Shown here piece by piece: positions 1,559-3,576 of a stretch of DNA of 34,254 nt; the stretch's first letter is position 1; each line of letters begins with the position of its first letter. The notes beneath the pieces were generated by a model. It was not told the origin of the DNA, did not search any database, and saw only the letters and a program-made list of their open reading frames with translations. Made by a program: the position numbers and the translations under genes. This stretch comes from a virus. Lineage: Duplodnaviria > Heunggongvirae > Uroviricota > Caudoviricetes. Where the stretch lies: the IMG/VR virus record IMGVR_UViG_2529292908_000011, one strand, 5' to 3'.

Positions 1559-3576
1559 TCAGCCAGCAGGCCATCCGACAGCATAACTGCGGATCGCCTT
1601 CAGGTCTGTCAGCGCCTCAACCTCGGCTTTCATCTGCAACTGCCGTGTATTAATCTCCACTCCCTTCGCAAACATCGCCTGCTCTGTCGCATCTGCCAGC
1701 GCAATTATCTCCGCCGCCGTCACCGGCACCACATTATTATCCCCGTCGGTCCAGGCAAAACCTTCCGGAAGACGGTTATTCTCTGCCATCAGGCGTGTCG
1801 TGCTTATCCTGGACAACGTCTTCTTGCCGTAATCCCAGTTCCTTCCGTTGAATTCCATCACGTATTCCATATTCTCCTGCACATCACGCCAGATATTAAT
1901 CTCTTCCCGTTTCGCCGCCTTTGCCGCTTCCAGTACTGCTTCCGTGGCAACAAAGGCACTCACGCTTCCGTACGTTCCTGCTGTCAGCCCAGACCACAAT
2001 GCTTTTCCGTGTTCTGTATTATCCGTTTCCGTTGCAGTATACGGCAGCCATACCTGTTCCCCTTTTTCATTCACCGCGTCTTCAAACTGCACCTCACAGT
2101 TTATCCCGCCATATTCGTTGCTGGCTGCATTTCGTACTGCAAGAATCTCTTTTCCCTTATCCACCATGACCTCCTCTATGATATGCGCTGAAATAATCCT
2201 GCCTGTCTGATACCCGGAGATGATGTCCATAGCATCGGACCACATGCACGCCACGTGCCCGGTAAACGGGTCTCCCCCACATTACCGGAAGCAACCAGGG
2301 GAGTACCATTCGAAAGGCAACATGCAGACAGTGATGAGCCGGCAATGGCTGAGCCCGGTGCCATATCCCCCGAATAACTCGTCGCATAATATGCCGCAAG
2401 GACAAAAGAACCGACACCAAACAGTCCGCTGTCAGGACTTCCTGACGGTCCCTGAGGTCCTGCCGGACCTGTGTCTCCCGTATCTCCCTTCGGTCCCTGT
2501 GGTCCTGCCGGGCCTGTGTCTCCCGTATCTCCCTTCGGTCCCTGTGGCCCTGCCGGGCCTGCAGCTCCCGCATCCCCTTTAGGTCCCTGTGGTCCTGCCG
2601 GGCCTGTGTCTCCCGTATCTCCCTTCGGTCCCTGCGGACCTGCCGGGCCTGTGTCTCCCGTATCTCCTTTTGGCCCCTGAGGCCCTGCCTGACCTGCGGC
2701 TCCCGTATCCCCTTTTGGCCCCTGTGGTCCTGCCGGGCCTGTGTCTCCCGTATCTCCCTTCGGCCCCTGTGGTCCTGCCGGGCCTGTGTCTCCCGTATCT
2801 CCCTTCGGTCCCTGCGGACCTGCCGGGCCTGTGTCTCCCGTATCTCCTTTTGGCCCCTGAGGCCCTGCCTGACCTGCGGCTCCCGTATCCCCTTTTGGCC
2901 CCTGTGGTCCTGCCGGGCCTGTGTCTCCCGTATCTCCCTTCGGCCCCTGTGGTCCTGCCGGGCCTGTGTCTCCCGTATCCCCTTTCGGCCCCGGCGGTCC
3001 GCCCGGGTCACCTTTATCGCCCTTCGGTCCCTGTGGACCTGTTTCTCCCCGTTCTCCCTTTGGCCCCGGCTCACCTTTTGGTCCGACCGCCCCCGTTGCC
3101 CCGGCTGGTCCCTGTGCTCCTGTGGCACCCTGTGGACCTGTGTCCCCCTTCTCGCCCGCCGGTCCCCGGGCATTCTCTGCCCGTTCCTTCGCTTCCTCTG
3201 CACTCGCCGCCGACGCTTCAGCACGCTTCAGGATTTCCGCTGCCACCGCTTCCAGCTCTGCAAGCGCTTTCGGGTAATACTGCACCTCATCCTGTTCCAT
3301 CAGAAATTTATTCAGCGTTCCCGGCTCAGAATCCGCCTTCACCAGAATGTCACCCACATACGACGGGGCGTACCCTTCCGTGTTCAGCGTCACCCGGTAC
3401 CACCCCGGCTCCACATCAAAACTGTAACTGCCGGTTTCCCCCGGCTGCCCCTGCGCCACCGTGGTGACTATCACCGTCTCACTCGTTCGCGTGGCTTTCA
3501 GCTCTATGGTGCAGTCCGGTACCGGTTTTCCTGTACCATCCTTCAGCACACCTGAAATCTTTACTGCCATATTCAC
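1559..3576 (-). CDS. stf: side tail fibre protein with collagen-like GXY repeats and a distinct C-terminal domain; reading frame broken by a 1-nt shift near 2271-2278 in this sequence
   Basis: N-terminal ORF 2176..3576 begins [19 protein letters not shown] (lambda Stf-like start), followed by long [16 protein letters not shown] repeats. C-terminal ORF 1559..2254 continues in another frame and ends ...SYAVGWPAG. The two frames join if the G5 run (plus-strand C5 at 2274-2278) were G6. Confidence 0.75.
2454..3168. repeat. collagen-like coding tandem repeats (45-bp GXY units in a ~180-bp higher-order repeat) inside stf
   Basis: Blocks 2641-2820 and 2821-3000 are near-identical. Translates to repeated [15 protein letters not shown] units. 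The many overlapping ORFs in other frames here are artefacts of the repeats. Confidence 0.85.

Follow-up and report, generated by a model that had tools for sequence, protein, structure and literature searches.

An apparently intact collagen-like side tail fibre gene of a lambdoid E. coli prophage, with a repeat array that probably changes by whole units

On the minus strand of the region analysed here, a lambdoid E. coli prophage very probably carries an intact gene for a collagen-like side tail fibre of the EPcl group, with a C-terminus of the EPclC* type. We take its repeat array to change by whole units and its reading frame to be unshifted, and the gene is probably unused for infectious particles in this genome. 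It lies in a stretch of 34,254 nucleotides, the whole of which we call the window. The fibre is an ordinary example of a kind already described: E. coli prophages commonly encode collagen-like side tail fibres (in 4345 of 5426 complete genomes there was a match to part of a 2.2-kb query comprising the fibre gene and its neighbours), and the collagen length polymorphism of EPcl proteins was described in 2012 (Ghosh et al., PMC3368898). What the present case adds is a clean worked example of array length change.

The minus-strand open reading frame spans 2176..3576 and extends to a GTG at 3576. The likely start of the fibre is the ATG at 3570, in agreement with the PGAP gene models of relatives, which gives a coding sequence at 2176..3570 of 464 aa plus a TAG stop. 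The genes J, lom, fibre and DUF4376 follow one another in that order, all on the minus strand, and relatives with an intact J show the same J-lom-fibre order. The features of the locus are as follows.

3635..4234, minus strand: lom (outer-membrane protein of the Ail/Lom type), next to the fibre gene on its upstream side as in lambda; Pfam Ail_Lom 2.2e-127
3587..3608, minus strand: terminator-like hairpin and T-run between lom and the fibre gene
2176..3570, minus strand: side tail fibre coding sequence; six NCBI assemblies encode a protein identical over all 464 aa
3298..3570, minus strand: N-terminal collar (tail-attachment) domain, aa 1-91, by Ur-lambda gpStfN homology and Pfam phage_tail_N
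3166..3297, minus strand: linker and short Ala/Glu-rich segment, aa 92-135, inside the Pfam phage_tail_N match
2434..3165, minus strand: collagen-like region of 81 Gly-X-Y triplets, by Pfam Collagen
2992..2994, minus strand: additional Pro codon (aa 193), which interrupts the GXY register inside GDPGGPPG
2452..2991, minus strand: twelve 45-bp (15-aa) units, GPKGD(T/A)G(D/A)(T/A)G(P/Q)AGPQ, in the order AABA AABA ACAA
2585..2979, no strand assigned: tract of 395 bp perfectly periodic at 180 bp, from the 215-bp exact repeat at offset 180
2274..2278, minus strand: G5 run (C5 on the plus strand), in frame as GTG GGG GAG (V-G-E) and not a frameshift site; invariant in six aligned alleles
2179..2433, minus strand: C-terminal non-collagen domain, aa 380-464 (85 aa), of the EC55989_1078 (EPclC*) type, ending LPGTWRACG...GLFQRIS
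1559..2167, minus strand: DUF4376 gene, 202 aa, with its ATG 8 nt past the fibre stop behind a GGAGG ribosome-binding site; Pfam DUF4376 (PF14301) 5e-17

A reading of the sequence alone had called the product a side tail fibre without naming the coding strand, which is the minus strand, and this identity was supported by domain content and by the gene's position after J and lom. Pfam phage_tail_N (PF08400), the PfN domain of EPcl proteins, matched residues 3-136 at E 4.7e-42 and covered the entire 134-position model, and 57 of the first 91 residues (63%) were identical to gpStfN in the Ur-lambda structure (9e7m_Ta, E 5.7e-31). Ur-lambda Stf (PDB 9E7M) is a trimeric side fibre that speeds adsorption, and twelve gpStfN copies make a collar that gives four trimeric fibres (PMC12617516). 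The window fibre shares with it the collar domain and the place after J and lom, from which a similar docking may be expected. Lambda Stf is built on a coiled-coil and gp37-like shaft with an OmpC-binding C-terminus and a Tfa (Caudo_TAP) chaperone, whereas the window fibre has a collagen shaft, an unrelated tip domain and a DUF4376 gene downstream. No Phage_fiber_2 repeats were found in the window fibre protein, and the gene that follows it is not a Tfa-type chaperone (Caudo_TAP, PF02413) but DUF4376; the only Caudo_TAP gene in the window (98-673) belongs to the adjoining Qin remnant. The junction at 1-1500 was absent from the collection of complete E. coli genomes and present in one NCBI draft contig (L014).

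The collagen-like region (Pfam Collagen, PF01391, 6.8e-38) had been put at about 240 GXY residues, and we counted 243, the 81 triplets occupying aa 136-192 and 194-379 with one extra Pro between. This interruption, GDPGGPPG at aa 188-195, is the conserved G-X-P-G-G-P-X-G break described for EPcl proteins (PMC3368898). The proposed architecture of 45-bp units grouped into a four-unit, 180-bp super-repeat was likewise recovered: Tandem Repeats Finder reported 2446-3007 as 12.5 copies of period 45 (87% matches) and 2446-2997 as 3.1 copies of period 180 (92% matches). The segments 2641-2820 and 2821-3000, said to be almost identical, agree at 175 of 180 positions, with all five differences at 2800-2818. 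The longest exact repeat at offset 180 is 215 bp (2585-2799 = 2765-2979), against 14-16 bp in shuffles of the window, and the perfectly periodic tract that it defines appears to be the footprint of a recent 180-bp duplication. Long open reading frames in other frames over the array (2157..3224 on the minus strand, 2589..3467 on the plus strand, and others) had no family matches of their own and were taken as by-products of a stop-free, GC-rich repeat.

The composition of the triplets places the region with the EPcl proteins, whose (Gly-X-Y)n domains prefer Pro, Asp and Glu in X and Lys, Ala, Gln and Thr in Y (PMC3368898). Here the X position is Pro in 52% and Asp or Glu in 35% of triplets, and the Y position is Thr (30%), Ala (22%), Lys or Arg (22%), Gln (19%) or Pro (5%), in agreement with the published values. 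The biochemically characterised EPclA proteins (e.g., ECs2717 of O157:H7 Sakai) share with the window fibre PfN, a single collagen domain with the same X/Y preferences and a position in the lambdoid tail module; EPclA copies, like the window alleles, differ in length by multiples of 3 aa. EPclA, however, has a 116-aa PCoil and 63-144 collagen residues and ends in PfC (PF06820). The window fibre lacks PF06820, which EPclA and EPclB carry, and has a different C-terminus; in place of the PCoil of these two groups (~109-116 aa) the distance from the collar to the first GXY triplet is only ~35 residues.

A closer relative is EC55989_1078 of E. coli 55989, a 467-aa protein classed as EPclC* by Ghosh et al. 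2012 (PMC3368898, Table 3), to which the last 89 aa of the window fibre are 94% identical. EC55989_1078 and its O104:H4 homologue have in common with the window fibre the PfN N-terminus and an array of the 15-aa unit GPKGD(T/A)G..GPAGPQ, with DUF4376 and ykgJ-like genes downstream and lom upstream. Overall identity is 60%: EC55989_1078 contains a 116-aa Ala/Ser/Glu-rich PCoil and only ~132-140 collagen residues, whereas the window fibre has a helical linker of ~35 aa, 243 collagen residues and the GxPGGPxG break.

Beyond this type, the C-terminal domain has few relatives. The isolated last 89 aa had no Pfam match, including PF06820, at E values up to 10; the domain had no PHROG match, and tblastn against 50,697 phage records gave none. 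A word-indexed protein search returned five E. coli fragments only, and HMMER, run exhaustively over 1.84 billion representatives, found seven matches, among which the only full-domain relatives were P0008 and P0009 (47% identity). An AF2 model from a 5-sequence alignment was beta-rich but of modest confidence (pLDDT 64), and Foldseek with this model found nothing in the PDB with E below 2. Because the family, phage and structure searches failed and pLDDT was 64, we assign no fold to the domain, and we only infer a role in receptor binding, since Pfam, PHROG, solved structures and phage records offered no match. It is presumed to be a distal trimerisation and receptor-binding knob; together with the DUF4376 partner, it would be where to look for receptor specificity.

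By homology, a picture of the assembled fibre can be proposed. EPclA is trimeric, with a collagen triple helix, and appears as a dumbbell in EM; its homotrimeric state and thermally stable triple helix were tested on recombinant protein by methods such as CD, analytical ultracentrifugation and EM (PMC3368898). Three window chains would similarly form one fibre. Their N-terminal 91 residues would be the collar through which, as in Ur-lambda Stf, the fibre docks where tail tube and tip meet, and the register of the trimer would be set by the short helical segment together with the C-terminal domain; the Ala/Glu-rich segment in aa 92-135 is presumed to be a short trimeric coiled coil. The 243-residue Gly-X-Y region is expected to fold into a collagen triple helix ~70 nm long with its one conserved GxPGGPxG break, leaving the 85-residue C-terminal domain at the distal end, where it could contact the cell or a partner protein.

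Arrays of this kind had been said to expand and contract readily, and a comparison of repeat number between isolates had been proposed. We found unit counts of 6, 7, 8, 10 and 12 among otherwise near-identical (~99%) alleles at one chromosomal site, which show 1-6 nt differences in the 843 nt outside the array. The 8-unit allele (L001) and the 12-unit allele (L012) have identical flanks, and L001 is shorter by exactly one 180-bp unit; the order AABA ACAA in the former, compared with AABA AABA ACAA, indicates a clean duplication. Two alleles with identical flanks one 180-bp block apart, and five unit counts at one site, support the view that such arrays change faster than point mutations accumulate. 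The structures of the alleles suggest that whole units, each worth ~4.3 nm of shaft, are gained or lost when units recombine unequally or slip during replication, and that the window allele arose from an 8-unit allele through duplication of one 180-bp (four-unit) block.

The differences in unit count between strains and assemblies mean either that copy number is labile or that assemblies disagree. In the second case the 12-unit count could itself be an artefact, with the 180-bp block wrongly duplicated or a true array of some other length. The perfect periodicity of 2585-2979 over 395 bp exceeds typical short reads, in the closest complete genome the array is shorter than in the window by exactly one 180-bp block, and two assemblies of the O104:H4 outbreak clone differ by 135 bp, or three units, in the homologous array (512 aa in 2011C-3493 and 467 aa in HUSEC2011). 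The general warning of the sequence-only reading that assemblies are unreliable here is borne out in part, by the O104:H4 pair, and some of the apparent variation between genomes could be assembly error. It does not extend readily to the window allele. The 12-unit allele recurs in six independent NCBI assemblies, where the 464-aa protein is unchanged and the 1395 nt differ at no more than one position. Its contexts vary: the potB site, either with an intact J or in a prophage with heavy deletions, and the Qin junction. Two of the six assemblies carry an intact 1157-aa J, and one contig is 987 kb. Because of this recurrence the 12-unit allele is probably not an artefact; the clean AABA duplication relative to the 8-unit allele also argues against one, and we consider a misassembled count unlikely. 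Fibre-gene length in such arrays should nonetheless not be trusted from short-read or reference-guided assemblies.

A bolder proposal can also be framed. Unit number may act as a fast-switching length dial, in which whole-unit gain and loss, at rates far above point mutation, would adjust how far the side fibre reaches to suit the thickness of the host O-antigen or capsule; the three-unit difference in O104:H4 would then be real variation within the outbreak. We regard this proposal as doubtful. If it were true, 6-12 units at ~4.3 nm per unit would amount to a range of reach of ~26 nm, and diversifying selection in E. coli prophages would act on fibre length as well as on tip specificity.

The window prophage is defective. 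Its J and tape-measure genes carry large deletions, with most of both missing, and fragments of J remain at 4302-5497 on the minus strand. These deletions suggest that the fibre gene is probably not building an infectious particle in this genome, since the element could not exercise the fibre's function by itself. An intact prophage of the type is present in GCA_040812925.1. Collagen-like proteins of a different kind are known from Gram-positive bacteria: in BclA of B. anthracis and Scl of S. pyogenes, a GXY array whose repeat number varies between strains precedes a C-terminal globular trimerisation domain, an arrangement also seen here. BclA and Scl, however, are spore- or cell-surface proteins with secretion or anchoring signals and do not belong to phage tails, and their composition differs (PMC3368898, Table 4). 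An intact fibre frame beside gutted J and tape-measure genes, the BclA match, and the adjacency of lom, which in lambda is expressed in the lysogen, could together be explained if the protein served here as a surface-exposed adhesin or immune-evasion factor of the lysogen, like Scl or BclA, and not as a phage fibre. This role is very unlikely: the fibre sequence has no signal peptide or membrane anchor, its N-terminus is a tail-collar domain, a terminator-like hairpin lies between lom and the fibre gene, and a search of the minus strand upstream of the gene found no promoter-like site. Prophages with intact J also carry the identical allele, so that its intactness may reflect recent decay of the other genes.

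The side tail fibre is paired with DUF4376, a separate gene in all relatives; in distant ones it starts 9-12 nt past the fibre stop, and even fibres only 36-39% identical retain the pairing. DUF4376 proteins are tail-fibre chaperones in Alteromonas phages (PMC7289586, PMC10579305), and whether such a chaperone is required for fibre folding and host binding, as expected of the V22 and A5 type of pair, is a question for co-expression experiments like those of PMC7289586. The likeness to V22 gp26/gp27 and A5 gp8/gp9 lies in a DUF4376 gene immediately downstream of the fibre gene; the V22 and A5 fibres are unrelated to the window fibre and have no collagen array, and for the DUF4376 protein of E. 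coli a role as chaperone is putative. By analogy, the protein encoded 8 nt downstream is a probable fibre chaperone or cap and probably helps the fibre to fold.

The sequence-only reading had also placed the C-terminal domain out of frame with the repeats at the G5 run. The run is real but is read in frame, and the fibre frame continues for 32 further codons to the TAG at 2176-2178; the out-of-frame 1559..2254 is the separate DUF4376 gene, whose ATG at 2167 stands behind GGAGG. A frame lost at the run through mutation or programmed slippage, such that the true product, or the ancestral one, would be a fibre-DUF4376 fusion reading on in the frame of 1559..2254, is scarcely credible, even though upstream of the DUF4376 ATG its frame stays open through 38 codons as far as the run and O157 prophages have frame-loss variants of EPclA genes (PMC3368898, Table 2): the in-frame continuation (LPGTWRACG...GLFQRIS) is conserved in relatives only 36-47% identical, DUF4376 has its own start signals and is separate in distant relatives, and GUGGGGGAG does not fit the X XXY YYZ pattern of slippery sites. 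Moreover, the open upstream stretch is found only in the window allele type; L005-L007 have a 1-nt indel after the fibre stop and before the DUF4376 ATG, which makes the frame offset 1 instead of 2, and upstream of the ATG their DUF4376 frame is closed after 21 codons, short of the run. Comparison with relatives thus contradicts the frameshift.

For DUF4376, the PGAP models of L005, L007 and L018 begin at the start corresponding to ATG 2167, and that of L006 at the adjacent GTG. A 672-bp PGAP model that overlaps the fibre gene by 55 nt was rejected for ATG 2167 on the strength of the ribosome-binding site, the L005-L007 and L018 models and the conserved start in distant relatives. Automated annotation is unreliable around such genes: besides this overlapping start, PGAP named one allele 'carboxypeptidase' and called an intact open reading frame a pseudogene.

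The reading of this gene from sequence alone as a side tail fibre gene was correct. An ORF listing placed the fibre ORF at 2176..3576 on the minus strand, in agreement with the region first assigned to it, and its likely start codon is the ATG at 3570 (MAVKISG...), preferred because the gene models of close relatives agree, which gives a protein of 464 aa. Pfam matched this protein to the prophage tail-fibre N-terminal domain (PF08400, 4.7e-42) and to collagen repeats (6.8e-38). Residues 1-91 aligned with a 94-residue 'Tail fiber protein' chain (PDB 9E7M/9MGH; E 5.7e-31, 57/91 identical), the sole solved relative. 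That chain is gpStfN, the collar domain of the Ur-lambda side fibre, 12 copies of which encircle the tail at the gpV/gpM junction to give four trimeric fibres (PMC12617516). The minus-strand gene order is also that of lambda (J fragments, lom, the fibre gene and then a DUF4376 gene), with all neighbours on the same strand. RefSeq calls one fibre allele an 'M14 carboxypeptidase N/E family protein', because the collar domain has a CarboxypepD_reg-like fold.

The shaft contains 81 Gly-X-Y triplets, or 243 residues where about 240 had been estimated. A single additional proline splits them into one stretch at aa 136-192 and another at aa 194-379; the register break reads GDPGGPPG. Proline occupies 52% of X positions, and Y positions are mostly Thr (30%), Ala (22%), Lys+Arg (22%) and Gln (19%). 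Tandem Repeats Finder recovered both of the periods that had been proposed for the underlying DNA, the 45-bp unit (2446-3007, 12.5 copies, 87% matches) and the 180-bp super-repeat (2446-2997, 3.1 copies, 92% matches). The two blocks described as almost identical, 2641-2820 and 2821-3000, agree at 175/180 positions, with all five mismatches within 2800-2818. The true footprint of the repeat is an exact 215-bp match at an offset of 180 (2585-2799 = 2765-2979). Since the longest exact repeats in the shuffled window were just 14-16 bp, the repeat is real and far beyond chance.

The array was expected to expand and contract, and a comparison of repeat number across isolates showed that it does. Alleles adjacent to potB, differing from the window by 1-6 nt over 843 non-array nt, carried 6, 7, 8, 10 or 12 units. 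The unit orders, in which A, B and C are three protein-sequence variants of the 45-bp unit, were as follows.

Window allele, 12 units: AABA AABA ACAA
L003 allele, 10 units: AABA AABA AA
L001 allele, 8 units: AABA ACAA
L018 allele, 7 units: AAAB AAA
L002 allele, 6 units: AABA AA

The 8-unit L001 allele and a 12-unit allele (L012) had identical flanks, and their sole difference was one 180-bp block. Every length change comprised whole 45-bp units, and therefore kept the reading frame and the glycine register. Judging from these alleles, the natural route of unit gain and loss would be unequal recombination or slippage between units. Collagen rises 0.286 nm per residue, from which we computed a length of ~4.3 nm for a unit, ~17 nm for a 180-bp block and ~70 nm for the whole collagen region. 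The rise has been quoted as 2.88 Å (PMC3368898).

The accompanying concern, that assemblies are unreliable across such an array, held in part. Complete genomes of the O104:H4 2011 outbreak clone were discordant in the homologous array by 135 bp (three units): the longer form (512 aa) was present in the 2011C-3493, C227-11 and FDAARGOS assemblies, and the shorter (467 aa) in HUSEC2011 and FWSEC0009, as well as in the related strain 55989. This discordance may be real microevolution or assembly error. As for the window allele, six NCBI assemblies encode the same 464-aa protein, their DNA differing by 0-1 nt. Together they represent three prophage contexts, two of which have an intact 1157-aa J, and they include one contig of 987 kb; such recurrence speaks in favour of the 12-unit count. 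PGAP labels the intact 512-aa O104:H4 fibre ORF an incomplete pseudogene.

The C-terminal domain had been thought to lie out of frame with the repeats at a G5 run (C5 on the plus strand, 2274-2278). We found the run to be in frame (GTG GGG GAG), followed by 32 further codons to the TAG at 2176. The peptide after the run (...GLFQRIS) was kept in E. coli alleles with DNA ~10% diverged and in a 652-aa relative 47% identical in the C-terminal domain, and IMG/VR prophage fibres of 36-39% identity shared the ending LPGTWRACG...GLFQRIS. By these comparisons the in-frame continuation is what the gene really encodes. The ORF in the other frame (1559..2254) is that of the next gene along, whose ATG at 2167 stands 8 nt past the fibre stop and is preceded by a GGAGG ribosome-binding site. 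PGAP placed its start at the equivalent ATG in L005, L007 and L018 and at the adjacent GTG in L006, and in distant relatives the DUF4376 start lies 9-12 nt past the fibre stop. In L005-L007, loci of relatives with DUF4376 gene models, the stretch between fibre and DUF4376 carries a 1-nt indel that shifts the relative frame of the two genes, and the DUF4376 frame is closed 21 codons upstream of the ATG and does not reach the G5 run. This closed frame, together with the gene's own start in relatives, argues that the openness of the frame to the run in the window allele is a coincidence, which explains the impression of a frameshift. A frameshift at the run was rejected, as the downstream peptide is conserved to 36-47% identity and the DUF4376 gene is separate. 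In RefSeq, the DUF4376 gene of the potB-site alleles L001-L003 begins 63 nt ahead of its likely ATG, which creates a 55-nt overlap with the fibre gene (window 2167-2254).

The 85-residue C-terminal domain matched no Pfam or PHROG family, and a tblastn search of 50,697 phage records found nothing; a handful of relatives were present among 1.84 billion representative proteins. Its AF2 model was beta-rich, of moderate confidence (pLDDT 64), and found nothing in the PDB. Down to 36-39% identity, the domain was always accompanied by a DUF4376 gene directly downstream. In the Alteromonas phages V22 and A5, DUF4376 proteins were shown to act on the tail fibres as chaperones or transient caps (PMC7289586, PMC10579305). 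From this constant pairing and the Alteromonas role, we infer that this domain would form the distal end of the fibre, where it trimerises and meets its receptor; the DUF4376 protein may, by analogy, be the domain's chaperone.

Collagen-like proteins of E. coli prophages, named EPclA to EPclD, have been described by Ghosh et al. 2012 (PMC3368898). They share a PfN domain, Pro, Asp or Glu at collagen X, Lys, Ala, Gln or Thr at Y, and a conserved G-X-P-G-G-P-X-G interruption; their collagen lengths vary between copies by multiples of three residues, and a trimer and triple helix were demonstrated experimentally for EPclA (PMC3368898). The sequence of the window protein fits this description throughout. 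Unlike EPclA and EPclB, it lacks the PfC domain (PF06820) and the 116-aa PCoil. Over its last 89 residues it shares 94% identity with EC55989_1078 (listed as 'EPclC*', PMC3368898). Among the retrieved fibres with the same C-terminal domain, none has a longer collagen region (range 120-243), though that of Stx2-86_gp21 exceeds it (322 collagen residues, PMC3368898). The family, the collagen length polymorphism and the exact protein are already in the literature or databases.

The surroundings of the fibre gene contain the following elements.

Minus strand, upstream of the fibre gene: lom (Ail_Lom, 2.2e-127, Pfam)
3587-3608, minus strand: terminator-like hairpin and T-run between lom and the fibre gene
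4264-4283, minus strand: terminator-like hairpin and T-run on the other side of lom
1530-1549, plus strand: terminator-like hairpin and T-run after the ykgJ-like gene
98-673: tfaQ, Qin prophage end
673-906: stfQ' fragment, truncated, Qin prophage end

The hairpins on both flanks of lom are consistent with its independent expression inside a Q-antiterminated late operon. Relative to CP145714, the closest complete relative, the central tail fibre gene J (4302-5497) has two internal deletions, of 295 bp and 1975 bp, with microhomology of 6 bp and 3 bp at the junctions; the remnants are an N-terminal ORF of 231 aa and a C-terminal ORF of 200 aa that overlap at 4802-4904. Of the tape-measure protein, 1080 aa long in a related prophage (strain 2017.17.03CC), the ORF here (9743-10642) encodes 299 aa, only the lambda-type C-terminal domain; the tail-assembly T gene is missing as well. 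With this second large deletion, the prophage is defective, and its intact fibre gene is probably idle in this genome unless supplied to another phage.

Over its first 898 nt the window matches the tfaQ/stfQ' end of the Qin prophage with 100% identity; at about 893-898 this end meets the right-hand end of the lambdoid prophage at the potB site. This junction occurred in 0 of 5426 complete genomes of the E. coli collection and in one other NCBI draft (GCA_012373615.2; 99.93% identity over 4116 bp). At the prophage end, a YkgJ-family cysteine-cluster (CxxCxxCC) gene (1031-1417, plus strand), oriented opposite to the tail genes and with no match among PHROGs, keeps DUF4376 as its neighbour in relatives whether they are integrated at potB or at the tRNA-Ser site adjoining hyaA.

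A full-length ompC-like porin gene (8070-9206, minus strand; Porin_1, 2.8e-142; PGAP name ompC) lies within the tail module, flanked by L (7173-7871) and a gene for a minor tail protein (9409-9750); 92 complete genomes of E. coli have this arrangement. The position of the porin gene is of interest because OmpC is the receptor for lambda-type side fibres. A second higher-order tandem repeat (13766-14298, 162 bp x 3.3 copies, 93% matches) encodes a 54-aa repeat (…DGKSITPDDVRPMLEQMVKEAVSHIP.PRDGRDYDP.VL…) in an ORF (13384-14523, minus strand). This ORF aligns with PHROG 2271 'portal protein' over the latter's C-terminal half and has an ATGA overlap with the stop of the portal ORF at 14520-15884.
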